Source: a virus (Duplodnaviria > Caudoviricetes). From it: DNA of 64,000 bases. The notes below the pieces were generated by a model that saw nothing but the letters and a program-made list of their open reading frames with translations, had not been told where the DNA came from and did no database searches. A program made the position numbers and the translations under genes. Position 1 is the stretch's first letter, and every line of letters begins with the position of its first letter. Shown in pieces: positions 17,001 to 61,976 of the stretch. Where the stretch lies: IMG/VR virus record IMGVR_UViG_3300038679_000357, positions 160,001-224,000 of that record; one strand, 5' to 3'.

Positions 17001-19927
17001 TTTTGAGGATTATACTCTCTTACAGTAATCCTTCCGTCAAATATGTCTTTGAATTTTGAAAGAAAATCTGCTGACAGTTTAGGGGAAGACAATACGCCGT
17101 TACTCATTTTCAATAAAACAGCAGACCTTCCAGTCGATTCAAATACCGTCTTAACTTCCTTGTTTAGAGTAGATGCTGCGACAGGAACGATACCGCAATC
17201 ACACAGACGGCAAAGAACATCAATCTTTGTTTTTGCAGCTTGATAATCATCAACCAACGACCCAAACTCACTTATTACATAATTTGACCACGTACTTTGT
17301 TCCTTGGTCAAATATTCTACAGGCTTAATTACCGGAGCCTTCGCCTTTACGTTTAACTTAGACAAAGTAGACATGTCGCTAGTCACTTCAAACAAAGCGT
17401 CTTTTATGGACATTTCATTTGAGGTAATCATTTTATCGACATCGCCATTTGCACTAATGAACGAATCAAACAATCTTTTGATTTGCACATTAACAAACTC
17501 TTTTGCCCTAAATGATGACATTCCGGCTAACTCATCCTTAAACTTCCAAGCAAAAGTTTCTGGAAGGAAGAACGATTTTGCAATATTCCTTTTCTCTTCA
17601 TTAGTTTCCGTCTTCACATAGTTACTTATCGCTCTTCTGGAGAAAATATTAATATACTCTCCGACTTCTTTGTCAGACAACAGAAATGCATCAACATAAA
17701 CAATTCCAATCGAAACTGTTTCAGATATATCATTTGGCATAGCTGATTCAGTAACGATAAATATGTGAGATCGATCAAGTTTGTTATCACGAACTTTTGA
17801 ACTATAAGAATTCAACATCTCTTGAAATTTTTGGCTAATAGCCATCTCTTTCTTTTTGGTTGATGAATTTTCAACCGCTGATACCAATCCATTGCCAACC
17901 ATACTTGCGCCAGCCCCATCAATACCCTTTATTACAACAGCAGATGGAGATGAGGTGCTTTCAAGTCCATATTTTTTTCGAATACTTGATACAATTGATA
18001 AGAAATCTTTTTTCTGATTTTTAGGAATTATTTCAAGTAGTGATGACTCATTTATAACCCCACCAAAGCGAGGTACATTCAGTCCGCGCTTTATGCATTC
18101 GTCAGAAATTTCATCGTTCATCCATTGTGGATCTTTTAAATTATAGCGCAAAAGCGATCCAGAGGCGTCGTACTCACCGCCATTATCAACCGGAGTCGCC
18201 CATTCATTGGTTTCTGACATCTTCTCCATAAACTTACTTATCTCACCAATTTCCCGAAGAAGATGTTCAAGCGCACAGCTATACAACCCTGAATTTTTCC
18301 GGTCCAATTTCTTTCTTTCCTCAAGATATTTTTTTGCCTTGAGTCTCTTTACTAATGCTCGGTTGACTTGATATAAATTATTTCCGCCGCCAACATGATA
18401 TGGAATCTTATCTCTGTAATCATACAAGTCAGGAGCCCAATTCGGAAGTGGTCCGCGATTAATTTTTATTCCGTATTTCTTTTGAACCTTTAAGATATCT
18501 TCTCTATGATCTTCGTACTCCTCAGAATAAATATCTGCTCCATCTGCAATCTCAAATGTAACTTTCCCATGATTACGAGTACGCTCATTAAGACGATCAT
18601 AAAGCTTAGATCCGCTAGAGACAACAAAATTAATGTAGTCATTACCACGAACTGCTCCAGTATAATAACATGTACCATCTGGAATCGCGCCGCCACTTAA
18701 CTGCTTATGTTCAACAGGAAGTTTAGATACTCCAGGCACGCCGATACTTCTTATGGATTCTGGATGAGAAATATCATAACTACTGACAACCAAATTTATT
18801 GGAGACGTTTCTCCAATGCCTAAAGACCAGGAAGCATCAACTGTAACACTCGTTAGCTCAGACGCTCGCTCGAAAAGAGACTTACTCTTATCCATTCTTG
18901 AACTGCTACCAACGTACTCAGAAATTGCATGAGTAACTTCCAGATCATTTTCTTCTCCGTCAGCACTCATTGGTAGCTTAACGTTTCTTGCTATGTCGAG
19001 ATAATTAGGGTCTGATACATTTTTTTTAGGGCGAGCAGCTACCTTAATTAAATCTTGCGAGATTTTAGATGCAACTGTAGTGTCTGGTGAAACTCGATAC
19101 GGTAAAAAAGACTTGTCAATAGTCCCATTTATAACACTCATTTCTCTACGTACATCTGCTACAGCAGCTTGAGAAAGACCGCCAGATAATTTCCACGACT
19201 TTCTTTTTTCATTAGCCTTTGTTTCAACATCTACTATTTCAATTCCCTTGACCGACCGACAAAGATATGTATACGACATTGGATTATCTGGATTGTATAC
19301 AATATCATTGCTTCGCAAGCTTGGCATTGCTGATAAAATCAACTCCTCAGTAATCGGAGCACCTGAGCCACCCTCGGAAGCGGCGGAAAGAACTCGCTCA
19401 GCATCCTTCTTAAATTCAGATACAACCATGTTATGTGGACTAAGATGGTTAAACATGGGGGTTCCGAAAATTGATTTACTTACGGCAGCTACATTCTTCT
19501 TTTCATGGTCGGGAATATTTACTCCACTACCAACCGTAACCTCGTCAACTATCGCTTCAGAAGTGCCTTTATTTATATTTACGTCAGTGTCATGAACGGA
19601 TGAATTTATAATATACTTAACGATTGAAGCGGCTGGTTCAGAATTATATCCGGGGCAAACTATATTTATGATTTTTCTTCCACTAGAAATATTCCATTTT
19701 GCATCAGCAATACACCTGTCGTATTTACCAGTTGACACAAGTGAACGGAACTCTTCATCAGAAGAAGCCATTTTATTAAGAACGGTTCTACCTGTTTCAC
19801 TTGCCTTGGTTAATAAATCCGCTGGTATATTTAAACGGCTGGGGCGACGCTCGTCAGCATTAGCGACGACGCGCCTCCCCATAGCCTTACCAACGGACCG
19901 TCTCAGGCGTCGCTCAAAGCTACTCAT
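14048..19927 (-). CDS. Giant (1959 aa) protein with a central classical AAA+ ATPase domain
   Basis: YFLYGAAGSGKS (Walker A, ~16855-16880), VILIDE (Walker B, ~16680), FVFTSN (sensor 1), FLSRIN (Arg finger); flanks unrecognised; acidic/Pro-rich C-terminus. Confidence 0.8.
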   Translation of the reverse strand: MSSFERRLRRSVGKAMGRRVVANADERRPSRLNIPADLLTKASETGRTVLNKMASSDEEFRSLVSTGKYDRCIADAKWNISSGRKIINIVCPGYNSEPAASIVKYIINSSVHDTDVNINKGTSEAIVDEVTVGSGVNIPDHEKKNVAAVSKSIFGTPMFNHLSPHNMVVSEFKKDAERVLSAASEGGSGAPITEELILSAMPSLRSNDIVYNPDNPMSYTYLCRSVKGIEIVDVETKANEKRKSWKLSGGLSQAAVADVRREMSVINGTIDKSFLPYRVSPDTTVASKISQDLIKVAARPKKNVSDPNYLDIARNVKLPMSADGEENDLEVTHAISEYVGSSSRMDKSKSLFERASELTSVTVDASWSLGIGETSPINLVVSSYDISHPESIRSIGVPGVSKLPVEHKQLSGGAIPDGTCYYTGAVRGNDYINFVVSSGSKLYDRLNERTRNHGKVTFEIADGADIYSEEYEDHREDILKVQKKYGIKINRGPLPNWAPDLYDYRDKIPYHVGGGNNLYQVNRALVKRLKAKKYLEERKKLDRKNSGLYSCALEHLLREIGEISKFMEKMSETNEWATPVDNGGEYDASGSLLRYNLKDPQWMNDEISDECIKRGLNVPRFGGVINESSLLEIIPKNQKKDFLSIVSSIRKKYGLESTSSPSAVVIKGIDGAGASMVGNGLVSAVENSSTKKKEMAISQKFQEMLNSYSSKVRDNKLDRSHIFIVTESAMPNDISETVSIGIVYVDAFLLSDKEVGEYINIFSRRAISNYVKTETNEEKRNIAKSFFLPETFAWKFKDELAGMSSFRAKEFVNVQIKRLFDSFISANGDVDKMITSNEMSIKDALFEVTSDMSTLSKLNVKAKAPVIKPVEYLTKEQSTWSNYVISEFGSLVDDYQAAKTKIDVLCRLCDCGIVPVAASTLNKEVKTVFESTGRSAVLLKMSNGVLSSPKLSADFLSKFKDIFDGRITVREYNPQNDGTYSNSDHDRMIAVVRRQIDAERQNVSSIKRNVKTAYFLYGAAGSGKSIFADVLANSFDLRFNMCTMNEVFSAGRDTMFRGQSENNLQEFFAYCRNCRNTVILIDELNKVFEGESRMDGSMQRDINLALMQTLEEDKGLYAVNGTYFVFTSNKGPEWFSKESGASPFLSRINAIGGSYEVEVPTDFESLKKMFKTDTIVNNTVTAMTDNNVVAETIKLMIAARRSDDEKMLIDLAKKIESIAPDVMKSGFIFPKSNRDSFMSTAGFSIEPEKGKDPYLYKVNDFLDGFIEAQKIFQSMDVNMPGKNYSYLDMICHRMMEKMNWEPDSKGRVHPRTGIRDLNGFVTNMLRSHRDFLSGVSGALPLNAQNLWHAVNLSEWNTVPPEFANDPVLADQAAKVPKPRDGWMALRAISSSKDLSLPYDVFLSKEDKKYIVDCVSSGVDSMGSKAVGMISSPNGHKAGETSINVSGFKRIISSGEKLRIANSLYVVSSATGNPSALITLSTPLVSNVANGESVLVVLPGAVNENKYIMSIIDHTLSLTDGEYNSKVNEIIGVLNGKNLSGVSSCRLVSKFLSEFSRYRSELINEKNSAVSNMKGVKSPDQVALVFEKFNLCFTNIVRFVSQNKNVIKSHVPNVSDSYLRGAVKISNPRWLTTMCRRLLSVVSCGRISSLVLACSESSDISTDIDRFEEENEKKKMEVFQSKGLALGLSDFNIHTGEPTPEMISWLNSKKLKDEDIVLTKFNTVEEAKAYKNSLISGITSFIDVEDNIDKKDQVAVEKDVQDNLVDKSLPVEDETTVPVEDVSSDDVDVSVPEIPTGDFDFDEKPETYPSSSNADESSKGSKLVDTDIEKDLQEEIDREVAKLTKVKSSYIPLFSNRIRFAQQAKMTPAAPSSVPMPVAPAVSEPVKSAPVDLNQSVVKSDPKDVATDVSNTTKSAPKLQTDLWNEKFMASAYYLLNKLQEERNEVKTEVNGPYAALLHL

Positions 19928-27700: not shown

Positions 27701-29111
27701 ACATTTTACTTAATTCAGTAAAATTTTTATCAGACATATATGGTCCAAGGAATAATGCCCTAAGACCATATTCCGTCCTGCTGAACTCAAGAAACAAATC
27801 AATTGGGACGTCTCTTATCTCACTTGCAAGACCGCCGTTGGCTCTAATCTTTTTCTTTCTATACGTTTCCTTCTCTTTCATAGACTTTTGCAGTAGCCAT
27901 ACCATTCCGCGCTCAGTCTGACTCATTGACACAATACTAGCGTACTTACCCATTGTATCATTGCCAGAATGCCCCATAGCCACAACAGCACTTTTTGCAT
28001 TCTCTATATGGTCAATGGAAGTAACAGCCGCACAAAGAATCATGACGTCACTATATCGATCAGATGAAGTAACAAGACTTTCAACTGAATCAGCAGATAA
28101 GTTCATATTTCTATTACGATAAAAACGATTCGCAAAACTATAGAAAACTTTTCGCATCAATATTCCGTCTTTGGTCAACCCAACGCCACCCCTTGGATTA
28201 TTTAATGTAGCGCTTTGCTCAATGGTTGACACATCATATGTAACTGGATTTCTATCACTAACAGAAATACCAGAAAGCTTATCTCTATATTTCTTTACGA
28301 TTGAAATAAGCCTTCCAATAAGTAGATCATTCTCAATCCTGCTTACATCTTCGTCGCTATTGTTAGGTGGATTGGCACCTCTACGAGCCTGCGAAGCCAC
28401 GTCAGATATTAGGTCTTCTAAAACAATTTTTTCTGGGTTGTCAATGATCAATATCGTTTTCACCGCAGACAGCAGCATGTTCTTTCTTATCCCAACAGCC
28501 AACTTGTGAGCAATATTTAATTTTTCCTGATCATCAATTGCTCTCCTCCTACCATTAACTTCAACCCCCCATACGGAATCACCAATTTCATCTATAAGAT
28601 CTTTCCCAATCAGCTCTTCTATTTTACTAACGTGAACAGCAAGACTGGCTTTAGAAGTTTTCTTTTTCCCCATGGCTGTCTTGATTGTAGATAAAGAGGA
28701 AGCTTCCTTAGTGTTATCTTCAGCCTCTCTTTCAGTCCTCCACTTCTCTTCCCTTTCTGAAACATTTTTCAAGTCAGTCATCGTATAATGAGGTAGTGAT
28801 TTTGGACGCGGAACGCCCCAGGTCTCATTCGCATAAGCAAACGCATCAGTAATACTGTCGAACTTCTTTCCGCCCGCTGGCCAACTGTCAGGAAGTTTTC
28901 TTACTCCGGCAAACCACTTTTTTTCATGCTTTTTCACACCAGACGGACTAATTACAACATTCCACTCATCACTCCCGCCAATTTCCTTTCCCTCAAACCT
29001 ATAATACGACTTAGGTCCAATAATGTCATTATACATGTCTTTAAGGAACTGAGTTTTATCTGTATACGACTCATTCCATGAAATTTTTTTGTCGTCTTTC
29101 AATTTTCTCAT
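24780..29111 (-). CDS. Large (1443 aa) hypothetical protein between portal and protease, probable internal head protein
   Basis: Long ORF coupled to the portal stop (ATGA overlap); acidic Gln/Asp-rich C-terminal linker; no recognisable catalytic motif. Confidence 0.55.
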   Translation of the reverse strand: MRKLKDDKKISWNESYTDKTQFLKDMYNDIIGPKSYYRFEGKEIGGSDEWNVVISPSGVKKHEKKWFAGVRKLPDSWPAGGKKFDSITDAFAYANETWGVPRPKSLPHYTMTDLKNVSEREEKWRTEREAEDNTKEASSLSTIKTAMGKKKTSKASLAVHVSKIEELIGKDLIDEIGDSVWGVEVNGRRRAIDDQEKLNIAHKLAVGIRKNMLLSAVKTILIIDNPEKIVLEDLISDVASQARRGANPPNNSDEDVSRIENDLLIGRLISIVKKYRDKLSGISVSDRNPVTYDVSTIEQSATLNNPRGGVGLTKDGILMRKVFYSFANRFYRNRNMNLSADSVESLVTSSDRYSDVMILCAAVTSIDHIENAKSAVVAMGHSGNDTMGKYASIVSMSQTERGMVWLLQKSMKEKETYRKKKIRANGGLASEIRDVPIDLFLEFSRTEYGLRALFLGPYMSDKNFTELSKMSVTPSDVSIMAKRMVSSNVNNIEEEVSKLEKDMLAYLSSKNLLDPDNQSNVTDGLNARPKEQFDEFIKQFRIQKHIYSRCLYEAIPAAYSREGTKFLKAKSGKQVRRFLETLGSWYFGRLSLPGKDPIDNSLISNLVLKPKISTVRDVISSSRKNNREDIANKLSEDYDGSEYSFISIDEFKKKYCQDESANSIFWQSNSMLSNIIPSISNDAISPNVVFTKKGALLALRYTMGEEWKLKTTSPHVYRGLLLDIIKGSKEVFHEDSDQNGGQASGAMSAIDSLRLHCEKNKKTEYTIDIDDLEAIADYCLNSPEYSDRRNKVNRIDNPACATFMSTADDDNLISSSSLSGHLVDAHSSTVVRAIATREKEKEKIGGDYEGLNVTELLLNGVVGGELFVKKGYFPPATGGITELPNDAIVIGGKKTKKSFSIDKLKSIKDGSDIIPGVYFERRLGGRTPVVYYPVRIGDISLSIKNYNKLVNQAFSVAKSSFSLPDYDPSVGSGKTPDRINNDQKNSIGKDEESEFEPIIDTAITGESTYGEFLKFIACGFYGESPIKARYSNDGDVSFSFANNESLQSRGTRGIWAQEASNDSYVNQQYRSLSDIDDARGILYNILPLVVSRKGFWWRNEQPTYTVEREVSGEMEVRHVPIVDFLSLNLSSPSRGDESLISFLMIGTGLETDYSNLKTSGMSSALENPEYYPITSKIVLCKESAERDAIRLIFSDMKRGLINNIIDEVASTALNTNASEVSSVIPGAGGKNDVVNRVGDGMSFNESLDGEIGSVEPRSGDESAEEQIPAMSEGQDQSSVEIQPSTEDQPSVVDGQDQSSVEDQVQTVDVPVSETGEEVVTQIDDESQPQSFFADDEYDNAYEDDEQAVEQIPLQSTVSPATQQTAQQPPETSTSVTDEDEEDIFNIFGGSGRVRSIMKEALLRMAGVSITLAKAGKTSESMEVTRMIKKMIGPKEGKNDQQIS

Positions 29112-31465
29112 TTTTTATCTCCCTGACTACGTACAGCATCGCCATGCAGACTCTTGATAAGCTCTCTCTTTCTAACAATTTCCTTCTCAATCCTGTCAAT
29201 AACTGCTCCAATATTATCTTTTATTTCGTCGTCTTTGAATCGAACAACAGTCCAACCGGCATTTCTCAATAGAGAATCTCGTTTATGGTCTCTAGCTACT
29301 TGTTCTGGAGCATTATGAAATGTTCCGCCATCAGCCTCTATATCAAGCTTTATCTGCGGAAACGCAATATCCATCAAATATGGTCTAGGTCCAAGCTTAA
29401 CTTCGTACCCACATACCCACTTGTATGGGATGCGACCAACCCTAGACCTTTCAACAAGTCCTTTCTCAAGATCTATCTCTATGCTTGTCTTCCAGATACG
29501 ACCTTTTTCATCTCGCTTAAATCCATCGCCACCATTAGATTTTTCAGAAGAACTATGTCCACCGCCTGGTTGCTGTTGAACTCTTGTATGATCAACTTTT
29601 TTGCGACTTTTTTCTTTCATGACTTTACCGCCGTAATCGGCGATATTGACTGAATTTTTTGACGTAGATGCAGCTACCGGCGGGGCTCCGCCAGGAGGCG
29701 GGGCTCCACCCATTTCTCCACCCGGAGGAGCACCACCCGGCGCACCGCCACCTCCAAGATCAGGAGGCAACCCTCCACCAAGGTCAAGTCCGCCTCCGCC
29801 GCCACCTCCACCAAGAGCCCCCTCAAGCCCGCCTCCGCCACCTGCTCCGCCTTCTCCTCCTTGAGGAGCGTCAGAAAGAGATTCGATTCTTTCATAGCGT
29901 ATTTGTTCCGCTTCGATATCGGGATCAATTTGATATTCTTCAAGAAGACGACGCCTTGAAATAACTCCCTTATCGTACAGCGACATAAGATTTTGACGCT
30001 CTTGGTTTACGTCACGTAAATTAAGTGCGTTCCACCGTATTTTTGGAACGATATAAACTTTTTCTCCCCATTCATTCTCTTTGACAAAGCCATTCATCTT
30101 GGCGATAGGTCCAAAAATCTTACTCTCAGCCCATCTTGATAGTTCATTGCGCCATTCATCGAGACGCTTAATCATTACTTCCGCTCCGATAGCTGCGGAC
30201 GAATAAACCGGACCCTCTGCATTCAAAAGCGCTTTGTTTATCCCAAGACCATCAAGTATTTCCTGGTTAATAAACTCCCACTCTGTACTCAACTGCAATA
30301 TCTGTCCATTAGCTCCAACCCACGACATATCAAAAGCGTGATGTGTTACAATTACTAAATTAGGATCATTTGCTGTAGCTTGCAACTGAGCCTGTACATT
30401 AGAAATATCCATTGGCGACGCTGGACGCTCTTCCGTACCAACTTTGACAACTTTAATTGGAATGATCATTCGTTCCGCAACAATCCACTGAGCGGTCATC
30501 AATTTTGTCTTATACGCCAAGATCGGGAATAAACGACGGATCATAGAGATCCCAAAACGTCGGTATCCACTTTCACCATATTTCAAATGACTGATGCAAA
30601 AATTATCAAGTGGAATTGGTCTTCCCTCCATAACCATTTTGGCTATGTTTGCGGCAAGCTTTCCACTTCCATTACCCTTCACCATCTGTTTTAATTCATC
30701 ATCTGGTATCATGCAAATGGAATTTTCTGGGGACAACGGATTAGTGAACACCTCAATGAAATCTGGATTTAAGACAACAAGTCTCTTAAACGTACCGCCT
30801 TCATGGTCGCAAACCTGACCATTATATAATCCAGTTCCATTGCATTGATCGCAATCCACCTCAAGAAACGGGAAACAATCACCAAGTAAATGAACCTCAT
30901 GATTAATGATTCTAAACCACTTCATGAGATCAATTTTCTCACAGAACTTTTCAAAATATTGCTTCACATACCGATCTTCACACTCAATTTCAAAGCCAGA
31001 AGAAATCGGAAATCTGGAGTAAAAATCTATTGCAGCAGCAACTCGCGGTTCATTTTCATAGAAAAAGCGGCTCCACTGATATATTTCACGACGCTTACTT
31101 GGAATCTGCCAATTAATTGGGGTGTATACTGGAGAGAAAAAGTTCGGTTGTCCGAACGAGATATTCAAGTTTCCACCAGCCTGACGAGTATGTCCTTGAA
31201 ACGCTCCGTTCGCCGAAACAGACCCAACATAATTTTGATACACTTCTTCATTTCCGACTAAGGGCTTCAATGACATAGCAGCATTTTTTGCAACTTGCGG
31301 AACGTCAGACAATGGAATTCCGCGCCTCGCGGCGCGGAAATGACTTTCAAGAGATGTGGTTATAAGTGGAACGCTTTCATTGCTGATCATTTTCAGTCCC
31401 TTTTGATCGTAAATGTTAATCGCAGAGTCCGCATTCCGCCCCGAAGCCAGCAAGTTCTTTTTCAT
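29108..31465 (-). CDS. Portal protein with C-terminal DUF559/Vsr-like endonuclease domain
   Basis: Portal-like FFYENEPRVAAAIDFYSRFP...LGDCFPF...VVLNPDFI...PLDNFCISHLK...YRRFGISMIRRLF; Gly/Pro linker (~29670-29870); then YLMDIAFPQIKLDIEADGGTFH...DHKRDSLLRNAGWTVVRF. Confidence 0.8.
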   Translation of the reverse strand: MKKNLLASGRNADSAINIYDQKGLKMISNESVPLITTSLESHFRAARRGIPLSDVPQVAKNAAMSLKPLVGNEEVYQNYVGSVSANGAFQGHTRQAGGNLNISFGQPNFFSPVYTPINWQIPSKRREIYQWSRFFYENEPRVAAAIDFYSRFPISSGFEIECEDRYVKQYFEKFCEKIDLMKWFRIINHEVHLLGDCFPFLEVDCDQCNGTGLYNGQVCDHEGGTFKRLVVLNPDFIEVFTNPLSPENSICMIPDDELKQMVKGNGSGKLAANIAKMVMEGRPIPLDNFCISHLKYGESGYRRFGISMIRRLFPILAYKTKLMTAQWIVAERMIIPIKVVKVGTEERPASPMDISNVQAQLQATANDPNLVIVTHHAFDMSWVGANGQILQLSTEWEFINQEILDGLGINKALLNAEGPVYSSAAIGAEVMIKRLDEWRNELSRWAESKIFGPIAKMNGFVKENEWGEKVYIVPKIRWNALNLRDVNQERQNLMSLYDKGVISRRRLLEEYQIDPDIEAEQIRYERIESLSDAPQGGEGGAGGGGGLEGALGGGGGGGGLDLGGGLPPDLGGGGAPGGAPPGGEMGGAPPPGGAPPVAASTSKNSVNIADYGGKVMKEKSRKKVDHTRVQQQPGGGHSSSEKSNGGDGFKRDEKGRIWKTSIEIDLEKGLVERSRVGRIPYKWVCGYEVKLGPRPYLMDIAFPQIKLDIEADGGTFHNAPEQVARDHKRDSLLRNAGWTVVRFKDDEIKDNIGAVIDRIEKEIVRKRELIKSLHGDAVRSQGDKK

Positions 31466-51733: not shown

Positions 51734-53422
51734 CTACTCCTTGTTATGTGTATGAGTCTTCGGACGACCAGGCTCATAGAACCGGTAATACATTTCGATC
51801 CTCCTAATAACCTCATCGGCAGTGATCATATCCATGCAAAACGGTAACTCCACACCTTCTACTGAGTTGACAACGTATTCGCACATATTCTTACGATCCT
51901 TCTCATCATTATCACCAATAGGCTTAATTCTGCTCTTCCAACATCCTCCATTGTCACAGCAAGGAAGAGATCCGCACGTATGGATAAATTGATGTGAGGT
52001 ATAAGCCTGCCAATGAGAAGGCTCTCGCCCGCCAGCGATAACAACACATGGTCTATCTCGCCTACCATTACATGTACCCTGCTTAACTGGAACAGCGGCA
52101 GCTAATGTCATAGGATAACTACATGGGGTCAAAACACCAGAAGACGCCCACACCAATCGGATCAATTGACGGTCATCAGTTTTACCGACAAGATTTATTG
52201 TACCATTCAACTCTGGATGATTATGGGATTTATGTCCCATTTGAACGAACACAACTCTTCCAGCAAAATGATCAATAACTTTCTGATACCGTTCAACTGG
52301 CCACATTTTTGCAGTAAAATCATTTTTAAAACCAGCATTAAGAATCCAATAATGTACATCAGCGGCATAGCCAAACTGAGAAAACCAAGTATTTCTCTCT
52401 GTCCATCCCCATCCATCTTCGTTCGAGCCGATAACAATATGACCTCGACATAACCTATTTCTTATCCTGACGCCAAGAAGGGTTTCAAAATGATCTGTGA
52501 ACCCCTCAGAAAAGTGATATGGTCCCTGATTACTTTGATTAATCAATGGATATTCAGCACTATACACCTCAACACCAGGTTCTTTTTCATCTAGCTTCGT
52601 GATATATGGATTCGATTCCCATATACCCATAGAATTGGTGCGAACGTCTGTAATAAACTTTCCGGGATGATTCAAATGAAGATCGCGAATTGCCGCAGTC
52701 ATCATAACGATATCACCAGGCGCTTGAAAATTCTTAAAAATAACCTTCCTTTTATCGGAGCCAGACGAAGATACGATAGAGGTAGATTCCACCACTTTTT
52801 TAGGAGTATCTACAGATGGGACGGCTTTCTCCCTCTGTTTTCTAAACTTTTCAAGAGCTGCCTTTCTTCTTTCCTCAATAGACGGCGGATGAGGAACTAA
52901 ATCTGACGAACGTGTCTCAATAACTTTTTTTTCTTCAGGCTCTACTACCTTATTTTCAATCAAAGCCGGTTCAGTTGACTTATCTACAGTTGGAAGTTTA
53001 TCCTTTTTAGGCGGAATATCAGGTATGTCAATTTCACGCTGTTCATAAACCTGCTGTTCTACGACGTTGGTAAACAAATTTATCCACGACTTTAGCGCCC
53101 CATGAGAAATCCACTCTCTTCCACCTATATACTTAGACACAACTGACTTACGATCATCTGGAAGAGACTTAAACTCAGATACAAACAAGCTTAAAATAGA
53201 GGGGTATTTTGAATTAATATAACACGACGGACACCCTCCTGATGGAACATTTTTTTCAGCCGTCGAGCACAACTCTTTTGTCTCAGTAAAATTTTCAGAC
53301 ACTATTTGGTCTGTGTCAATCTTTTTTATTATATCCAACGCTACAGACGCTGGAGTAAGAATAGATTGAGGTTGCTTGCGGTTAACTAGCGTACTGATCT
53401 TTTTAAGCATATGAATCACCAT
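51734..53422 (-). CDS. GT9 (heptosyltransferase-like, GT-B) glycosyltransferase with N-terminal extension
   Basis: APGDIVMMTAAIRDLH..HP, AKMWPVERYQKV, INLVGKTDDRQLIRLV..S.GVL...SYPMTLAAAV. Confidence 0.8.
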   Translation of the reverse strand: MVIHMLKKISTLVNRKQPQSILTPASVALDIIKKIDTDQIVSENFTETKELCSTAEKNVPSGGCPSCYINSKYPSILSLFVSEFKSLPDDRKSVVSKYIGGREWISHGALKSWINLFTNVVEQQVYEQREIDIPDIPPKKDKLPTVDKSTEPALIENKVVEPEEKKVIETRSSDLVPHPPSIEERRKAALEKFRKQREKAVPSVDTPKKVVESTSIVSSSGSDKRKVIFKNFQAPGDIVMMTAAIRDLHLNHPGKFITDVRTNSMGIWESNPYITKLDEKEPGVEVYSAEYPLINQSNQGPYHFSEGFTDHFETLLGVRIRNRLCRGHIVIGSNEDGWGWTERNTWFSQFGYAADVHYWILNAGFKNDFTAKMWPVERYQKVIDHFAGRVVFVQMGHKSHNHPELNGTINLVGKTDDRQLIRLVWASSGVLTPCSYPMTLAAAVPVKQGTCNGRRDRPCVVIAGGREPSHWQAYTSHQFIHTCGSLPCCDNGGCWKSRIKPIGDNDEKDRKNMCEYVVNSVEGVELPFCMDMITADEVIRRIEMYYRFYEPGRPKTHTHNKE

Positions 53423-53439: not shown

Positions 53440-53469
53440 ATTATACAACACCACAACAAAATTAATCAA
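53440..53469 (-). promoter_or_regulatory. Candidate sigma70-type promoter for the GT9/GT8/MTase cluster
   Basis: Minus strand TTGATT-N18-TATAAT, 17 nt upstream of ATG 53422. Confidence 0.5.
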
Positions 53470-53924
53470 GGAGATGTAGAGGAGCTAGAGCTACTTGAAG
53501 AGCTAGAGCTACTTGAAGAGCTACTGAATGTCAACCAACACCTAATGTACTCTACGTTCAAATATTTTGACGAAGAGCTACTTTGGCTAGAAGATGATAT
53601 GCTCGAACTGCTTTCACTGGAAGACGACATACTTGAGCTTGATTTTGAAGACGAACTGGATCTTCCGTCAATTACAGCGCCAACTTGAACTTCTGAAATA
53701 CGATTTTCAACATATTTACGGGCTCCAGAAAAATGAAGTTCATCTTTAGCTCCATCAAGATCATTCCATGGTCCGTCTCCATTAAATCTAATATGATGAG
53801 TAATAAGCGAAGTGGGGTCGATTCCGATAGGATATCGGTCAGTCGGCAATGAAGATACCACCCCAGTTGCCGACACATCGATCAGCGGGGTAAAAACAAA
53901 AACATTCCATGGACCGACTATCAT
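53466..53924 (-). CDS. Small protein with two poly-Ser tracts
   Basis: About one third Ser, ending FSSSSSSSSSSSSSSSSTSP; directly upstream of the GT cluster. Confidence 0.6.
   Translation of the reverse strand: MIVGPWNVFVFTPLIDVSATGVVSSLPTDRYPIGIDPTSLITHHIRFNGDGPWNDLDGAKDELHFSGARKYVENRISEVQVGAVIDGRSSSSSKSSSSMSSSSESSSSISSSSQSSSSSKYLNVEYIRCWLTFSSSSSSSSSSSSSSSSTSP
53482..53524. repeat. 18-bp tandem repeat encoding poly-Ser
   Basis: gagctagagctacttgaa twice plus a partial third copy. Confidence 0.85.
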
Positions 53925-53964: not shown

Positions 53965-54960
53965 TTAACTTTCATCACTCTTCCGCTTTCTAGGCGACTC
54001 TCTCTTCGTATTCTCAGATAAATATTCAAGAATTGCCTCACCTTCGGTCTTCCCTTCGTCACGCTTTTTTGCAATTTCATCCCAATATTCAGACATCATA
54101 TATTGCGAAGTTGAATATTCGGATTTTTTAATGAGCGACTCCCTTGAGGAAGAAGCTGTAGGCATCTTGTCTAAACTTGGTTGATTATTCCCTGGAGGTT
54201 GTGGGGTTGGAGGAACAATCAATCGTCCAGCTCTTGGTCCATAAACTTCATAGAGATCATATCCAAGAATACCATTAACGTTAAAGGAGCGAAAATCTCC
54301 AAAAGCATGAGAACATTGTCCAACAATCAATGTTCTTCCGTTTTTTCCCGGCTTTAATTCATACGGAGAAAGAGGAAGCATATAATATGAAGAAACATTA
54401 CCGTTTGGAAGTTCATAATCAAAGGCAATTGCCAAATTGTACTTGTTGGCTATCGGAACAAGATCTATTACCGCCATATTGAGCATAAGATCAGGCATCG
54501 GATTTGACATTTGTTTCGGCGGAGATTGTTTGGGTGCAGGTTCAAACTTATCCTTAGATTCGTCTATTGGCAAAATGTCAGGAACATCATCCAGATACCC
54601 CTCATTCAGCACCTCATCATCTGACAATTGCGCCATTATCAATCTCGAACCTGGTATGATCCCGTTTCTCGCAAAAAAACCAGAATTTGCTTCAACCGCA
54701 TACAACACCGGTTCAGAACTGACAACTGATTTTACCGAATAGGGATGCAGAGGAAGAATCTCAGAAATTACCTTGTCTTCCCGAACGTAGGCAATGTCGA
54801 GTGGAATCCTTGTGTCTTTCATCCAAAACGAAAGCTTTCGAGGGGACGAGAAAGTGAAAACCATCCCGGAATTCATCCCAAGACAGTCACGATGCATCAA
54901 CCCAAGTGACCTGGAATAGTCATTGGCGGCGGATTCAGCGTATAATCTTACCCTTGCCAT
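53965..54960 (-). CDS. DUF192 (UPF0127) domain fused to a WYL-like domain
   Basis: RSLGLMHRDCL...GMVFTF...SFWMKDTRIPLDIAYV...YAVEANSGFF (DUF192); IAFDYELPNG...P...LIVGQC...FRSFNVNGI (WYL-like). Confidence 0.7.
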   Translation of the reverse strand: MARVRLYAESAANDYSRSLGLMHRDCLGMNSGMVFTFSSPRKLSFWMKDTRIPLDIAYVREDKVISEILPLHPYSVKSVVSSEPVLYAVEANSGFFARNGIIPGSRLIMAQLSDDEVLNEGYLDDVPDILPIDESKDKFEPAPKQSPPKQMSNPMPDLMLNMAVIDLVPIANKYNLAIAFDYELPNGNVSSYYMLPLSPYELKPGKNGRTLIVGQCSHAFGDFRSFNVNGILGYDLYEVYGPRAGRLIVPPTPQPPGNNQPSLDKMPTASSSRESLIKKSEYSTSQYMMSEYWDEIAKKRDEGKTEGEAILEYLSENTKRESPRKRKSDES

Positions 54961-55418
54961 TACGTCTTTTTCTTCCCCAAGGCAAAACGCATTTTGCCTA
55001 TTTTTTCACTATCAGCCAAAATCTGTCCATATGGCTTGTGTACGCGCTTGGACTCAAAGGCGTTTTCTTCATTCAAAACGATCGTTTTTATTACTTGTTT
55101 TGCACGCTGAGTAAACTTAACTTTTCTAGTATCTTCACCAACAACTAATCCAAGCGTCTTCAGTCTCAATACATCACTATTCGACACGGTATCCGGAAGA
55201 TCCAGCGTATCGCCCATCGACTCTCCGCTCTCTCTCCATACGCGAAACAAAAGAGAAGCCTCACTATCGCTTAACTTTATATTCTTTTTGGCGGCATCAC
55301 TTTTTATAATGCCACCGAGAATAGATACATCAATTCCAGAATGAATGTCTTCTGGGGAAGAGGGAGTCTCAGCTTGTTGACGTGCAGGATAACCAATTGG
55401 AATGATCGGTGATGGCAT
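54960..55418 (-). CDS. Hypothetical protein, possible winged-helix
   Basis: SDSEASLLFRVW...VLRLKTLGLV...VKFTQRAK resembles a wHTH; SD GAGGA. Confidence 0.45.
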   Translation of the reverse strand: MPSPIIPIGYPARQQAETPSSPEDIHSGIDVSILGGIIKSDAAKKNIKLSDSEASLLFRVWRESGESMGDTLDLPDTVSNSDVLRLKTLGLVVGEDTRKVKFTQRAKQVIKTIVLNEENAFESKRVHKPYGQILADSEKIGKMRFALGKKKT

Positions 55419-55419
55419 A

Positions 55420-57783
55420 TTATTCCTCAAACAATTCGGGATTCTCGTCTTTCGCCTTTCTCCAGATATCTTTCAAGCCGGAAAGGTTATACTCCTCCAA
55501 CATCGACTCTCCATTATCATACCTGGATATTTTCACGTACTCATAAGCCAACCGCAACTGAGTAATATTTCCTGTGAAAACACTACCAGAATGTTCTAAC
55601 ATAGCCTCCATAAGCTCTGGAACGATCGTATATCCTCGAAGAGCCATAATAATAGCTCTAGTAATGATCAATGGATTTCTTGGGATGATTTCTCCAGGTT
55701 GGAATATAGTTTTCACAACCTTTGACTTGGCATCCTCAATCCCCATGCCAGTGATATCGTATATCTTCCCCTTAACAAAATCATAAAGTAGACTATTAGC
55801 CGTAAAATCACGAGCATATATGTCGTAGTTTAATGACGTGACCTGCACTCCATTTTTTCTCATAAGGTCACGAACATCAACGGGAACAAAATTTCCGCGA
55901 AAATCCATTTTCATCCCGTCATAAGAAAAGCTCATCGTCATTGTTCTTAATAGAACACTCATATCAGTGGCATTTAACTCTTCGGCAAGAAGTCCACCCA
56001 TTTTTAAACATTCTGTTGGATTTCCAGAGGTAAAATCGATATCGTTAACTTCCCTATAATCACCACTGCCAATCATTGTCCTTGGCAATCCACCAACCGC
56101 ATACACAGAGTTTATCCCGTGCTCGCGACAAACCGTCTTGGCAACCGTTAAAATATATGAGATCTGGTCAGAAATGCGTGCTGAAGTTCCCATAATCTCA
56201 TCCACGGAATCTGAATCACCTATAATGATTGCCTTTTCCATATTGATAATTGCTTTTTCATCTACATGAGGTGAAACAAGCCATATAGCATCATGATCTC
56301 CATGCTCAAACTTGTAAACCCTCATATCGGAACAAGCTCGCTCTATGGCGTCAGACATATACGAAAAGCAATACATTCTCACTGCCGGGCGCTTTCCAGA
56401 CTTTACCTGAAACTTGTAGAAGCCTATTTTTCTCATGGACTCAAGGATGATGTTTTTTGTTTTATCATCAGCCTCTATTGCTGCAGCCTTCCTCCATGGA
56501 CCGGTAACAATATCCTCACGATATAGAGAACTCCATGTCATTGGATTGTTATTACAGTAATCAATCATTGTAAAGTTCACGTCATACTGATATGACATAC
56601 GACCAAAACGATCGGTTTGATAACTGACATTTTCCGGACGATATCGTTTATGCCAATAAGGATCTTCACCTTCTTTGTAGTCAATCCTATCTACAATATC
56701 TCGACCATCCATTACGCGAGGAATTGCCTCGTCAATTGCGTAAAACGGTCCACCAATATTTGGTCCACCAAGGTTAGAGTTGATTCCAGCAGTTTTTCGT
56801 ACTGGTCGTATGATCGGACGAGGTCTGGCATTTTCCAATAACTCCTGTAAGGTCATCCTCTTAACCTCGTCGTCGGTGTAATCGGCAGACAATCCATCAG
56901 CCACAGAAAAATCAGGCGGAAGAGGCTTATGATGGTTTTTTTGTAATATCGTCTCCATACTGTCATTAGGCTTCTTATCAACAGGGAAAAACATGTTGTC
57001 AAAATCACTAAAAGATTGCAGCATTGCCTCTGGAAGAACAGCGTCCAAAAATGGAACGATTTGAGCCTTCTTTATCGGCATCTTAGACGAAGCATTATAT
57101 ATTTCACTACCCATTTCAAATGGAATGCGACCTTGTGACTTTCTTGTGGAGTTCAGTTCGCCTATTTTTTCATTTGTCCACTTTTTTTGTGCCTGAATTG
57201 GAGCAGACTCGTCTTTTGCTCCAAGAGCGTGAACCGACTCATGAACAATCGTAGATCCCAAATGAAGAGCCACGAGAAGGTCAAAATCAGATTGATCCAG
57301 TGGTTTATATTCACTTCCAGATATCTGCTTGGATAAATCCTGAAAATTCTTTTTCGCAATATCGAGAATCTTAGCAGCATTTATTCCGATAACAAGACCA
57401 CCTTTCAAGTCAAGATTACCATACATCTTATCCATTTCGTCACGAACCTGATCTGGGTTTTTATCATCAGACCAAGCATACAGGCTACCATTTTCATAGC
57501 GAACACTGTACCCCATCTTTTTAAGTTCAGCCTCAACAATTTTGACTTTAACGGATCGATCTATGTTTGGATCAAAAACTCCAAAAGCACCAGACTCAGA
57601 AGAATTATATATATAAGCAATATTGGTTAAATTTCCGCCAAACGACGAACTTCTCACCATATCGAGAGCTGTCCCAGCCTGTGATAAAACAGAGGCAATT
57701 TCGCCAATATCAACTTTTGATGGCGAACCTATGTTTCCTTCGATAGAAGGTACGATCCTATCTATTTCACCGGGCTGATACAT
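55420..57783 (-). CDS. Zincin-motif N-terminal region fused to a class II (CCA-adding/poly(A) polymerase-like) nucleotidyltransferase
   Basis: IVHESVHALG (HExxH, ~57230); VYAVGGLPRT...NDIDF (motif A with DxD); DIYARDFTANSL (motif B); IYDITGMGIED; RNPLIITRAI (motif D position). Confidence 0.8.
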   Translation of the reverse strand: MYQPGEIDRIVPSIEGNIGSPSKVDIGEIASVLSQAGTALDMVRSSSFGGNLTNIAYIYNSSESGAFGVFDPNIDRSVKVKIVEAELKKMGYSVRYENGSLYAWSDDKNPDQVRDEMDKMYGNLDLKGGLVIGINAAKILDIAKKNFQDLSKQISGSEYKPLDQSDFDLLVALHLGSTIVHESVHALGAKDESAPIQAQKKWTNEKIGELNSTRKSQGRIPFEMGSEIYNASSKMPIKKAQIVPFLDAVLPEAMLQSFSDFDNMFFPVDKKPNDSMETILQKNHHKPLPPDFSVADGLSADYTDDEVKRMTLQELLENARPRPIIRPVRKTAGINSNLGGPNIGGPFYAIDEAIPRVMDGRDIVDRIDYKEGEDPYWHKRYRPENVSYQTDRFGRMSYQYDVNFTMIDYCNNNPMTWSSLYREDIVTGPWRKAAAIEADDKTKNIILESMRKIGFYKFQVKSGKRPAVRMYCFSYMSDAIERACSDMRVYKFEHGDHDAIWLVSPHVDEKAIINMEKAIIIGDSDSVDEIMGTSARISDQISYILTVAKTVCREHGINSVYAVGGLPRTMIGSGDYREVNDIDFTSGNPTECLKMGGLLAEELNATDMSVLLRTMTMSFSYDGMKMDFRGNFVPVDVRDLMRKNGVQVTSLNYDIYARDFTANSLLYDFVKGKIYDITGMGIEDAKSKVVKTIFQPGEIIPRNPLIITRAIIMALRGYTIVPELMEAMLEHSGSVFTGNITQLRLAYEYVKISRYDNGESMLEEYNLSGLKDIWRKAKDENPELFEE

Positions 57784-58372
57784 CTTTTACTCTTGTTGGA
57801 GTTTTAGTTGGTGTCGCAGAAGGAGATTCTTTTTCCTCATCTTTTTCTTTCTTTTTTACACCAAGAGAAAAATCATTATTGACGAGATTTGCTCCAGTAG
57901 GAACGTCAATATCAACGTATTCAATATCAGCAGCACTCCTGCCTTCATCACTAGTTTCTTGCGGAGGTTCGTTTAGCACCAAATCTTCATCATCTTCTTC
58001 AACCGTATATACATCTTTATGCGATTCAAGCCAATCACTTAATACCTTGGTCTCCTTTACGTCAAGAGCAGAGATTGTTTCCCATCCAGACCCCAAAGAT
58101 TTACCTACATTTTTATCAACCATTTCCGTAAAAAATGAAAAATCTCCAAGCTCAGATATATGTTTTCCGTCTGGACTTTGATGATCAATTATCATTTTCT
58201 TTTCTTCTTTATCTACCAAAAACTTAGTAAGATATTCTACCGATATGACAACGGTATTTCCACCAGAATCATCGCCGCCAGAATTATCGTCACTAGACTG
58301 GGAAATCTTGACTGGTCTTTTAACAGAAATTAGTTTCCACCTATCATTTTCCAAAACTTCATACAGTCTCAT
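57767..58372 (-). CDS. Hypothetical acidic protein
   Basis: 201-aa ORF overlapping both neighbours. Confidence 0.55.
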   Translation of the reverse strand: MRLYEVLENDRWKLISVKRPVKISQSSDDNSGGDDSGGNTVVISVEYLTKFLVDKEEKKMIIDHQSPDGKHISELGDFSFFTEMVDKNVGKSLGSGWETISALDVKETKVLSDWLESHKDVYTVEEDDEDLVLNEPPQETSDEGRSAADIEYVDIDVPTGANLVNNDFSLGVKKKEKDEEKESPSATPTKTPTRVKDVSAR

Positions 58373-59390
58373 GTTTCATCTCCGTCATTAATTGATTCAC
58401 ATATTCAGAAGGAATAGCGGCATTTAACCCATAATTTCCAGTTGGCTGAACAATCATAGCTGCCACGCCAATAACAACGCCATCCAACACATCAATTATC
58501 GGACCGCCAGAACTACCAGGATATACCGCTAAATCGACAAAGAAATACGACCCCACACTGTCAGTGCCAACACTTCTTCCGATAGATGAGATCATCCCTC
58601 TTGAAACATTATTGTCATAGCCATACGGACTTCCTACGCATAAAATATCAGCACCAGTTTTCATCGCGGAAATCCCCTTCATACCAAGATAGGTGTGTTT
58701 TACTGTCTCACACGACATCAACGCCAGATCACGATCGTAATCTACTTCAATTGGTATAACACGATGACGTCGACCAGATTCAACAAGATAACATGAGACT
58801 GACTTAGGATCTTCCTGCCTGCGACTTATTACATGAGCACATGTGACAAACAATGTTTCGTCTATAGCAAAACATGATCCGATTTCCATCTTACCATATT
58901 TCGACGATTCGCATTCCATTTTGAAGCAAGCCGACATAACGTCGGCAATCACCGGAATAATATCTTGTTTTTCTCCAGAAGAAGCCTGCCGATCAGGTTT
59001 CCTACCACGCCTAGTCATCATAATGTATCTTTTTTTAGACCAGTCTTTCATTACCTTTTCGTAATCTGAGTCGGGGTAAACATGTTCTTTGTGTTCTACA
59101 TCAAGAACAATTATCTCAGTTGAATAATTAATGTCTCGATCACCACTCTCGATTTCAGTTTCATTTCTGAAAAAACCACCGACAGCGTGAGACACTCCAT
59201 CCGGCTCTACTCCAATGAATTTATGGTCTCCCCCCATATTGGAGTCAAAGGTGGTCCGTTCCTTATCCCCAGGTCCACCGCCATACCAAGGAGATTGTTT
59301 TGACTTGTCGGTGACAGGAGACAACCCACCATCGAACGGCATTGTTGTTCGATGAGCTGCTATTTTATCGGTTATCTTCCTGATTTTCAT
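58359..59390 (-). CDS. Trypsin-like (HtrA/Trypsin_2-type) serine protease with N-terminal extension, no PDZ
   Basis: Intact triad: FVTCAHVI (His), DRDLALM (Asp), YPGSSGGPI (Ser); VGSPYG...VSRGMIS. Confidence 0.9.
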   Translation of the reverse strand: MKIRKITDKIAAHRTTMPFDGGLSPVTDKSKQSPWYGGGPGDKERTTFDSNMGGDHKFIGVEPDGVSHAVGGFFRNETEIESGDRDINYSTEIIVLDVEHKEHVYPDSDYEKVMKDWSKKRYIMMTRRGRKPDRQASSGEKQDIIPVIADVMSACFKMECESSKYGKMEIGSCFAIDETLFVTCAHVISRRQEDPKSVSCYLVESGRRHRVIPIEVDYDRDLALMSCETVKHTYLGMKGISAMKTGADILCVGSPYGYDNNVSRGMISSIGRSVGTDSVGSYFFVDLAVYPGSSGGPIIDVLDGVVIGVAAMIVQPTGNYGLNAAIPSEYVNQLMTEMKHETV

Positions 59391-60194: not shown

Positions 60195-61976
60195 TTACAT
60201 AGTCCTACCAACATTTGCCAAAACAGAAGATGGAAGAGAATTAACGATTCCATAACCGGACGCCATCCAAGTTGCTCCTGCGATACAGTCGGCTAAATCA
60301 TCCGTCGGAAAATCAGATTTCACATCCTTATCTATCGACACCCCTCTTGTTGTCGACTTAACCTTTAAGTTAAGTAATTCTCCGTATATGTAATCATCGT
60401 GGTACATCCAAAACTCATCGGCATTCATTAGATCTTCAAGATTTTTGTAAAAAGAGGCTTTTCCGCCTCTCGAAAACGAAAGTCTTGTTGCAATGATTCC
60501 CTTCCCCTTTAAAAACGCTATACTATGAACAGAATTCCATAAATCGTAAGAAATTCTCATGGTCTTGAATTTTCGACAGATATCGTAAACTTCCGCATCA
60601 ATTGCTTGAAAATCAAGCAACTGACCTCCTGGTTTCCACATCCGATGTGTAGCCAAATAACACCGATGCCTCTTTTCTCCACGACGATTGACATACTTCG
60701 TCTTACCTACAACTGCTAATGCATAGTTATCCCTGGTTGAGGCTGGATCGACATGGATATAATATTCAACATGCGGTTCTGCTCCTGTGCGCATGAACAT
60801 AAACGTTTTTATGGCGTTAGAAACGGTATCTTTAGCAAAATAATTTCTCTTTGATCCGCTCTTTCTCCACATCGACCCATATTCTGTATCGAACGACTCC
60901 TGGTCTCTTTTTCTTTCTTTTGTTAGAAACTCACAATCATATGGAAGATCCTCGTTTATATCCCATGTAGCCAACCTAAAAGACAAGGTCTTGCGAAATT
61001 CATCATCCACACTGTTGCCATTTTCCCATATCTCATAAAAAATACCACTAGGATAATTTACTGAAGAAATTTCAACTAGTCTACCGTCACCCTTAATCGT
61101 GAATTTTGCGATAGACGGAATGAGTGCGTTGTAAAAAGTTCTTCCAGAAACGACTGGGTTTTCATCGTAAAATGCCAACTCGTCAAACAAAATAGCAGCA
61201 GCAGAATAACCACGTAAGGTATCTGGATTGCTATGTCCGCAAACCAATACAATTGATCCTTTTACAGAAATATTGGTGGTCGGATCAGATTTGTTCCGAA
61301 TATCCGCATCAGTAAGAAGACGGATTTCAGTAGATAAGGCATCGCCATCGATTCTACCGCGAAAAAACTTACATTTTCTCAATCGATTTTTGACCTGTGA
61401 GAATAAACGTTGTGACTGAGGTCCAGAATTAGCTACATTGATAATGGCGATTTCTTCGTCATCAGGAATACCATAAAACTTATACGGATCACCAATCTTT
61501 ATGAGCTTATATGCCTCATACGCAACAATAATCGAAGTCATAATGGTTTTTGATGCGCGACGACCAAGCGCCAGGTGTAATTCATTGAATGTAAAATTCG
61601 AAGGTTCTCCTGGATTTTTACCATCCCTCATTTTTCTAAGTCGATGAATTACGTTATCAAGTTGTTTGTCGTGTAACCATTTTTCCTCTTCCGGCGACAA
61701 TGTTACGTTTTCATTTCCCCTTGTCCCCATATAGAAGCACTTTAAAATAACTCGCTGCCCAAGAAAAAGGGGGAAATTATGTTGAGGAAGATCAAGAAAA
61801 TCTGGATGGTTACAGAAGGTTATTATGTCAACTATATAATCAAACTGATCAACAGAAGTTTGCTCAACAGATAGTCCGGCATCAGCCCGGACCTTGTTCA
61901 TCAATACTTCTAGTGGAGCAGAAACTTGTCCATCCTGATGTCTGTCAGAATGCGTGTTTTTCTTTCTTGGGGGCAT
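60195..61976 (-). CDS. terL: Terminase large subunit
   Basis: ATPase LALGRRASKT (Walker A variant), IINVANSGPQSQ, TLRGYSAAAILFDELAF (Walker B), LVEISS (coupling motif); RNase H-like nuclease IHVDPAST...DDLADCIAG. Confidence 0.92.
   Translation of the reverse strand: MPPRKKNTHSDRHQDGQVSAPLEVLMNKVRADAGLSVEQTSVDQFDYIVDIITFCNHPDFLDLPQHNFPLFLGQRVILKCFYMGTRGNENVTLSPEEEKWLHDKQLDNVIHRLRKMRDGKNPGEPSNFTFNELHLALGRRASKTIMTSIIVAYEAYKLIKIGDPYKFYGIPDDEEIAIINVANSGPQSQRLFSQVKNRLRKCKFFRGRIDGDALSTEIRLLTDADIRNKSDPTTNISVKGSIVLVCGHSNPDTLRGYSAAAILFDELAFYDENPVVSGRTFYNALIPSIAKFTIKGDGRLVEISSVNYPSGIFYEIWENGNSVDDEFRKTLSFRLATWDINEDLPYDCEFLTKERKRDQESFDTEYGSMWRKSGSKRNYFAKDTVSNAIKTFMFMRTGAEPHVEYYIHVDPASTRDNYALAVVGKTKYVNRRGEKRHRCYLATHRMWKPGGQLLDFQAIDAEVYDICRKFKTMRISYDLWNSVHSIAFLKGKGIIATRLSFSRGGKASFYKNLEDLMNADEFWMYHDDYIYGELLNLKVKSTTRGVSIDKDVKSDFPTDDLADCIAGATWMASGYGIVNSLPSSVLANVGRTM

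Follow-up and report, generated by a model that had tools for sequence, protein, structure and literature searches.

What a class II nucleotidyltransferase (NTase) does once the residues that choose its nucleotides have been replaced, and why it should be joined to a zincin-like domain, are the questions raised by one open reading frame (ORF) of a Caudoviricetes virus. This class is the standard example of enzymes that select nucleotides by a template of protein side chains, the EDxxR motif, whose Asp and Arg read CTP and ATP. The ORF occupies 55420..57783 on the minus strand of the window, the 64,000-nucleotide stretch analysed here (positions 160,001 to 224,000 of IMG/VR record IMGVR_UViG_3300038679_000357), and all features of its product described below lie on that strand. 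The source is a 255-kb virus record from groundwater metagenomes, 97% complete by CheckV, and the protein's own contig measures 340.7 kb. The product, P0001, is read in one open frame of 787 aa that runs, from N to C terminus, through a zincin-like domain, a conserved linker, a small alpha/beta domain and a class II NTase head and neck. An AlphaFold2 model built with 23 homologs as input (mean predicted local distance difference test score, pLDDT, 71.8) separates the same four parts, namely a confident aa 4-225, a low-confidence 231-441, a small alpha/beta unit at 441-545 and a confident 546-787. At the level of sequence the comparisons confirm a class II NTase that lacks the Asp/Arg template, body and tail and is fused to an invariant zincin site within a conserved head module. 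The reading we favour, with a probability of about 0.45, is that of a head-module protein of polyvalent type, probably processed, with an NTase that is active in its own clade but does not make CCA.

The class II assignment of the C-terminal 242 aa (aa 546-787, 55423..56148) was obtained from both profile and structure comparisons. The Pfam PolyA_pol head model PF01743 (cut-off 23 bits) gave 38.5 bits over aa 561-690 and 41 bits with the isolated domain, and in a six-frame search of the genome the domain again exceeded the gathering threshold (42.4 bits), this being the sole PF01743 gene of the phage. When P0001 was compared with the PDB by Foldseek only the last ~240 aa were matched (E down to 1e-6, Foldseek probability 1.0), and all 46 significant matches were CCA-, CC- or A-adding enzymes or poly(A) polymerase I (PAP I), with 9ns4, 9kma, 3aqm, 1vfg, 1miv and 3h37 the closest to the domain. 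These alignments covered ~240 columns of targets 340-517 aa long; the chain stops ~100 aa past the head, after the neck, and no body, tail or HD domain is present in P0001. NCBIfam models for CCA enzymes scored far below their cut-offs (NF009814, 26.5 bits against 290; TIGR02692, 26.1 against 438.8). Models for PcnB, the poly(A) polymerase I, did likewise (TIGR01942, 38.3 bits against 305.65; NF008634, 16.7 against 702), and neither EDxxR nor the C-terminal RNA-binding region of that enzyme was found.

Alignment to solved enzymes with HMMER settled the motif registers, and the motif strings quoted in an original prediction, made from the letters alone, were all found at the coordinates it gave. 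Motif A reads GGLPRT (56077..56094; canonical GGxVRD), G564 being kept in 106/107 and R568 in 102/107 related domains, with Thr at the place of the Asp. The catalytic DxD (D581 and D583 in NDIDF, 56032..56046) and the third catalytic carboxylate (D627 in M-D-F-R-G, 55903..55905) are invariant within the protein's own clade. The motif B region, DIYARDFTAN (55795..55824; canonical D..RRDFT.N), retains R658/D659 but has the first Arg replaced, 'YaRDFTvN' falling under 'lrRDFTvN'. At the motif D position RNPLIITRA (55654..55680) stands where EDPLRxLRA is canonical, and 'ipaNPLiitRai' aligns with 'fleDPLRilRgi', 'flDDPLRvlRav' and 'yrEDPVRmlRav'; the Asp has thus become Asn703 and the Arg Ile706, the position before Asn703 being variable. 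In an alignment of 23 homologs, with x-N-P-L-[ITV]-[ITV]-T-R as the pattern, N703, P704, T708 and R709 are invariant, 702 is free and 706 is limited to Ile, Val, Thr and Leu. Motif E is retained as RLAYEYVK (55531..55554; canonical ER..E..K) with R744/E748/K751, 'seeRLaYEyeKi' lying under 'skERvgeEieKm'. The domain therefore resembles class II tRNA nucleotidyltransferases and PAP I in GG..R (G564, G565, R568), DxD and the third carboxylate, R-D-F-T-x-N with the second Arg and the Asp of motif B, a neck helix ending ..R, the distal Arg of motif D and motif E. It differs from them in the missing templating Asp (now Asn) and Arg (Ile/Val/Thr), the first Arg of RRD (Ala/Ser/Asn) and the Asp of GGxVRD (Thr), and in being fused behind 545 aa of other domains without body, tail or HD domain. 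The claims of a class II NTase with intact DxD, of a replaced EDxxR and an RRD turned into ARD, and of a missing HD domain have thus all held.

The further claim, that the template had been rewritten to give a novel specificity, found no such support. From its sequence the change is better called template loss, as Asn plus an aliphatic residue offers no new hydrogen-bonding pair. When EDxxR was randomised in the human enzyme and selected in vivo, neither A addition nor CCA addition yielded any substitution of the Asp or the Arg (PMC11784652), and replacement of the Arg in Escherichia coli PAP I (R215A) abolished polyadenylation and led to random incorporation of A, C and U (PMC2532741). Relaxed specificity after template loss would fit as well as a new specificity does, and so, in the wider family, would a role without catalysis. 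A novel NTP choice is unproven, and sequence allows no prediction of one.

The same replacement is seen across a large set of relatives. A word-indexed search returned 22 full-length homologs (34-73% identity, 770-821 aa), all metagenomic and on contigs of up to 500 kb, and an exhaustive search of representatives returned 1002 relatives, 185 of them with E below 1e-10. These fall into three architectures, proteins of ~790 aa, proteins of ~1100 aa with ~300 extra N-terminal residues, and stand-alone head-neck proteins of ~250 aa; one of the latter matches, P0049, is a contig-edge fragment, and the others start with Met inside long contigs. Over 107 complete head-neck domains the Asp-template position holds Asn in 88 and Asp in 12, ten of these having the canonical Arg too, and the first Arg of RRD is kept in just two. 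In a tree the D...R forms make up one subclade nested in the stand-alone proteins, and all zincin-fused members are of the Asn type. The Asn plus aliphatic template is thus a family-wide trait, fused and stand-alone, and not private to ORF 55420-57783. Within the clade of 34-73% identity, all 27 members keep D581/D583/D627, GG..R, R658/D659 and R744/E748/K751 of motif E, which argues for purifying selection on NTase catalysis here, and the carboxylates are kept in 22 of 24 stand-alone 250-aa relatives of the Asn type. Proteins of PHROG 24229 and 2244, annotated 'tRNA nucleotidyltransferase', and stand-alone ~250-aa phage proteins have the same head-and-neck-only domain; many are of the Asn type and lie in the same neighbourhood between TerL and DUF192, yet they are single-domain proteins and include the nested subclade with canonical D...R. 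No relative turned up when 185,579 reference genomes were scanned by pattern.

The PHROG annotation points to a tRNA nucleotidyltransferase, and the closest matches in both sequence and fold are to CCA-adding enzymes, which are common among jumbo phages (PMC7824862). The protein could on this basis be an ordinary phage enzyme that adds or repairs CCA, maintaining tRNA 3' ends in infection or after host nuclease attack, and the 46 tRNA genes of the phage genome (G000:C1:2231-36332), covering nearly all amino acids, would suit such a role. However, CCA is encoded in 46/46 of them, so that the tRNAs lacking CCA for which the original prediction proposed to look are not present (0/46), and the array lies outside the window, at least 120 kb from the zincin-NTase gene, which itself sits in a packaging and virion block. 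No RNA repair partners were found: RNA ligase and RtcB searches of the phage genome were negative, PF09511 being uninformative there as its control matched nowhere. An ordinary CCA-adding enzyme is judged unlikely from the sequence because body and tail, which would bind tRNA, are absent, because all tRNAs encode CCA and because the templating Asp and Arg, replaced across this family, tolerated no change when A or CCA addition was selected for. Together with the NCBIfam scores, this leaves CCA addition or repair as the least probable of the explanations that we weigh. One tRNA of the array, at 18373-18447 and on the strand opposite to the others, has anticodon CTA (amber-reading; 'Pyl' according to ARAGORN) and may from its sequence be a suppressor tRNA; under table 11 the ORFs of the window read through normally.

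At the other end of the protein, aa 20-228 (57100..57726; pLDDT about 80-90) form a zincin-like, metallopeptidase-type domain. Its metal-binding and catalytic signature, H-E-x-x-H-x-x-G-x-x-x-E, was verified at aa 181-192 (57208..57243) as HESVHALGAKDE. Among 84 N-terminal domains of the wide family H181, E182 and H185 are present in all and G188 and E192 in 83, so the HExxH with a downstream Glu that had been pointed out earlier is real. In the AlphaFold2 model HExxH closes a helix at 164-186 and E192 lies just ahead of a helix at 193-216. An exhaustive VIA-align search returned, over aa 20-228, YbeY (Z 7.5, 7.4 and 7.3), the zincin-like 3e11 (7.4), Wss1 (7.0 and 5.7) and deuterolysin (6.2), with AsaP1, archaemetzincin and selecase as further zincin-fold matches at Z 5-7.5; since values of Z < 8 fall in the noise band of that tool, the fold assignment rests on the consistency of the matches together with the motif. 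Nearest neighbours in Atlas language-model features were all small zincins (0.85-0.91; Peptidase_M85/NleC, GtgA/PipA, M91, Tox-MPTase3 and M48), and Foldseek of the N-terminal model against the PDB, AFDB clusters and BFVD gave nothing significant. The domain probably shares with the minimal zincin effectors (M85 NleC, GtgA/PipA/GogA, M91 NleD, Tox-MPTase3) and with small zincin-fold hydrolases (YbeY, Wss1/SprT, selecase, 3e11) a fold of ~200 aa in which the HExxH helix is followed by a helix with the third ligand. It differs from them in having no membership at the level of hidden Markov models (HMMs) and in a Glu placed seven residues past the second His. Judged from the model, YbeY-like RNase chemistry may also be compatible with this fold.

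Between the two enzyme-like domains lies a linker (aa 229-440, 56464..57099) of ~210 aa, predicted to be disordered and probably extended, with pLDDT < 50 over 231-256 and 318-441, yet with many invariant residues; searches with Pfam (230-445) and Atlas features (231-445) gave no usable match. Three of its conserved places could be processing sites. Site 1, KKA-Q (aa 238-241, 57061..57072), has the consensus W-Y-K-x-A-Q (236-241), and in 45 distant relatives of 25-33% identity it keeps K/R in 89%, A in 84% and S/Q/G/A in 87%. Site 2, KTA-G (aa 330-333, 56785..56796), has the consensus P-[ILV]-x-K-x-A-S (327-333), with A332 invariant in 23/23 and the site conserved in distant relatives. Site 3, KAA-A (aa 432-435, 56479..56490), has the consensus P-A-K-R-F-A-S (428-435). 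In the same 45 relatives [KR] and an Ala at +2 are both conserved at four places only, all in the linker, where about 1.06 would be expected across the 787 positions, and three of the four take the form [KR]-x-A-[S/Q/G]. A similar motif is found just N-terminal of the catalytic domain in the adjacent HtrA-like protease (R-Q-A-S, D-K-A-A-S, K-V-A-Q, K-I-A-Q). Of the earlier proposal that KxA sites between the domains release the NTase, the deep conservation of three linker copies stands; an enrichment over the whole protein was rejected, as seven copies were observed against 5.7 expected and two conserved ones sit within folded domains. The pattern is suggestive, and we treat the linker motifs as candidate processing sites. 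Beside the K-x-A sites the linker carries the blocks N-D-S-x-E-T-x-L-x-K-N-x-H, R-P-x-P-x-I-x-P, G-I-N-S-N-x-G-G-P and D-R-F-G-R, the longest being D-G-R-D-I-x-D-R-I-D-Y-K-E-G-E-D-P-Y-W-H-x-R-Y-x-P-E-N. The linker could be either a binding segment or a fold missed by a shallow alignment. The small middle domain that follows (aa 441-545, 56149..56463) is DUF2023/2guk-like, with VIA-align matches to 2guk_B (Z 8.1) and YlmH (Z 6.7) and Atlas matches to DUF2023 (TM 0.54) and DUF3793; Pfam on the isolated aa 440-550 gave nothing and the other Atlas shape matches were weak. It thus resembles alpha/beta domains of 2guk/DUF2023 and YlmH type, whose functions are unassigned or RNA-related.

The surroundings of the gene form a packaging and virion block with tail-fibre-like proteins, glycosyltransferases, the portal (29108-31465; PHROG 16240, E 3e-46), TerL (60195-61976; PHROG 2, E 2e-24) and an AAA+ protein of 1959 aa (14048-19927, minus strand; Pfam AAA at aa 1015-1130), the last of these near the zincin-NTase gene in the window as well as in several relatives. 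All relatives examined share one gene order: TerL comes first, then one or two small genes, the HtrA/DegP-type protease, a small gene, the zincin-NTase, a ~150-aa gene and DUF192. The order from TerL to DUF192 is kept from 73% down to about 28% identity, 1100-aa forms included, and the stand-alone NTases of the Asn type likewise lie downstream of TerL and are followed by a ~140-aa gene and DUF192. The zincin-NTase gene is thus a core gene in a lineage of uncultured large phages. Its 5' end overlaps the 3' end of an upstream 201-aa gene by 17 nucleotides (nt). The serine protease upstream (58359..59390, minus strand; TIGR02037, E 9e-27) is of HtrA/DegP type without PDZ and remains a fixed neighbour down to 29% identity; its N-terminal extension of ~150 aa has invariant P18, S24, P34 and G53. 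A split-gene version of zincin plus NTase, considered at a stand-alone NTase locus (L012), was unsupported: the 277-aa product of the upstream gene proved unrelated to the N-terminal profile by hhalign, and PHROGs on the neighbours there were uninformative. An AAA+ counterpart in a relative (L009:8234-11164) carries an intein (Hom_end_hint/Hom_end).

Downstream, a partner gene of ~152 aa (54960..55418, minus strand) begins at an ATG at 55418, 1 nt past the NTase stop, and its GAGGA Shine-Dalgarno sequence falls inside the 3' end of the NTase gene, so that the two are translationally coupled. From the invariant M-P-x-P-I, ATG 55418 is probably the real start rather than TTG 55430. Homology links the ~150-aa partner to the N-terminal part of longer proteins encoded after the 1100-aa forms (E 1e-20 and 9e-15), and proteins of 387 and 661 aa in relatives carry it as an N-terminal domain. 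It ends in a basic tail with R-[FL]-A-L, and in an Atlas model of low confidence it resembles a MarR-type winged helix. Next in the module, the DUF192 protein (53965..54960, minus strand) has a long C-terminal extension, at the end of which stand a Lys-rich tail and the conserved block M-M-T-E-Y-W-D...E-G-x-T-E-G-x-A-I-L-x-Y-L-x-E-N; in distant relatives DUF192 stands alone (114-239 aa). Directly downstream of it, 53466-53924 (minus strand) encodes a 152-aa protein with two long poly-Ser tracts, near several glycosyltransferase genes (51734-53422, with a weak GT9 match).

This position near terminase and head genes raises the prospect that the NTase acts on something other than an RNA 3' end. 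It might nucleotidylylate a protein of the capsid, the portal or the host, or the DNA termini as they are packaged, or it might make or modify a small nucleotide. The lost first Arg of RRD and the coupled winged-helix-like partner gene would suit such a target. However, motif E and the neck, which position the 3' end of the RNA primer in class II enzymes, are retained, and a complex prediction for aa 441-787 with the downstream 156-aa protein scored 0.01, the tool returning 'no answer', and speaks neither for nor against binding. We know of no class II enzyme with protein, DNA-terminus or small-nucleotide substrates, and regard such a target as very unlikely.

The combination of domains recalls the polyvalent proteins of phages, in which a zincin metallopeptidase (MPTase) is a hub of phage-packaged proteins and for which MPTase processing and delivery with the DNA have been proposed (Iyer, Burroughs, Anand, de Souza, Aravind 2017; PMC5512222). 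As in those proteins, one polypeptide unites a zincin-like MPTase (HExxH, with a Glu at the following helix) and an enzyme of unrelated type, and its gene lies among virion genes in a phage with portal and terminase, a synteny kept in relatives too. Pol-beta NTases of the described set are, in contrast, minimal NTox45-like domains confined to conjugative-element proteins, and a class II head-neck NTase is absent from the listed phage-type polyvalent domains (PMC5512222), so this class of NTase is new to the theme. Two further differences are that a separate HtrA-like protease is the fixed neighbour here and that packaging is here a prediction. By analogy, the protein may be a processed, capsid-delivered effector.

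Several observations weigh against the favoured reading. The zincin fold scores are middling (Z about 7), and no Pfam, NCBIfam or PHROG peptidase family matched the N-terminal domain, aa 1-235 alone also giving no Pfam match. The [KR]xA motif has low information content. N703-P704 directly precede a helix (705-715) in the AlphaFold2 model; Pro preceded by Asn or Asp is a well-known arrangement for capping a helix. Since this N-P at the helix N-terminus is kept even in relatives without catalytic carboxylates, the conserved Asn703 may be a structural cap and not a base reader. In 20 of 35 other, more distant zincin-fused relatives at least one NTase carboxylate is gone, as in S-I-S-F, E-L-N-F or N-I-D-F where D-x-D-F is expected, a loss confirmed by an independent MAFFT alignment. 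As the module and the zincin site persist in these relatives, NTase catalysis is not what the family conserves as its core function. The fusion was also found in no cultured phage among 50,697 phage records, tblastn matching the NTase domain alone at 27-33% identity (Lak phages, Aeromonas phages and uncultured huge phages), and a look for RNA data gave none.

Much of this would follow if the NTase fold were a structural or binding module or a former enzyme, and the protein mainly a morphogenetic zincin protease or a scaffold-like head-assembly factor. The intact carboxylates of the present clade would then be a retained ancestral state of little functional weight. The gene slot is unchanged where carboxylates are lost, the dead NTase protein P0053 holding the identical place between protease and DUF192, and dead domains retain N-P...R and R-D-x-T-x-N, which implies that these residues are conserved for structure. 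HExxH..G...E is invariant in 83-84/84, and across the wide family the constant catalytic site, as judged from the alignments, is that of the zincin and not of the NTase. A zincin-like peptidase has also been noted as conserved in the head modules of other jumbo phages (PMC7824862). The retention of the whole catalytic set by the 27 clade members, and of the carboxylates by most stand-alone relatives of the Asn type, speaks against a purely structural role, which we hold to be a minority prospect though one of some weight. Many relatives of ~800-1250 aa (P0043-P0086, e.g. L019:9001-12750) have DxD and the third carboxylate replaced with the zincin site invariant, and their sequences suggest the decay of an enzyme fold within a conserved protein of the head module.

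For the clade of P0001 we return to the favoured reading, a processed polyvalent-type protein with an active NTase. The NTase would be a template-independent 3'-terminal ribonucleotidyl transferase with relaxed or different NTP choice. The canonical mechanism, in which protein side chains serve as the template for CCA, would be closed to it, and without body and tail it would not measure tRNA as a CCA enzyme does. Cleavage of the precursor at the linker motifs, whether by the neighbouring HtrA-like protease or by the zincin domain itself, would give aa 1-240 (zincin, ~27-kDa), 241-332 and 333-434 (~10-kDa each) and 435-787 (alpha/beta plus NTase, ~40-kDa). The location of the gene between terminase and virion genes suggests prohead processing and delivery, in which case cleavage would occur in the prohead and the pieces would enter the host with the DNA, the zincin acting on a host protein and the NTase on host RNA. 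A more specific version is doubtful, namely a template-less class II lineage whose enzyme leaves its zincin-containing precursor at [KR]-x-A sites while still in the phage head, enters the host with the genome and adds non-CCA tails, promiscuous or of U/G type, to the 3' ends of host RNA or tRNA. Equally doubtful, taken jointly, is that such tailing would serve as a weapon of take-over or counter-defence and that the co-delivered zincin would cleave a host protein.

Interest in these findings is tempered because 'novel specificity' has a plausible dull alternative in a structural Asn. Even so, a conserved and so far undescribed head-module set emerges in uncultured large phages, made up of an HtrA-like protease, the zincin-NTase, a winged-helix-like protein, DUF192 and a giant AAA+ protein, and it brings with it [KR]-x-A-[SQG] as a candidate processing motif. 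Should the protein be cargo, the polyvalent-protein idea would come to include an enzyme that tails RNA; should the NTase have a purely structural role, it would provide a clean example of an enzyme fold decaying in a virion protein. A large natural family, with about 1000 relatives, has replaced both templating residues, with the rest of the catalytic site under purifying selection in this clade, and its product and acceptor would reveal how far other elements carry specificity, or to what use a template-less class II enzyme is put.

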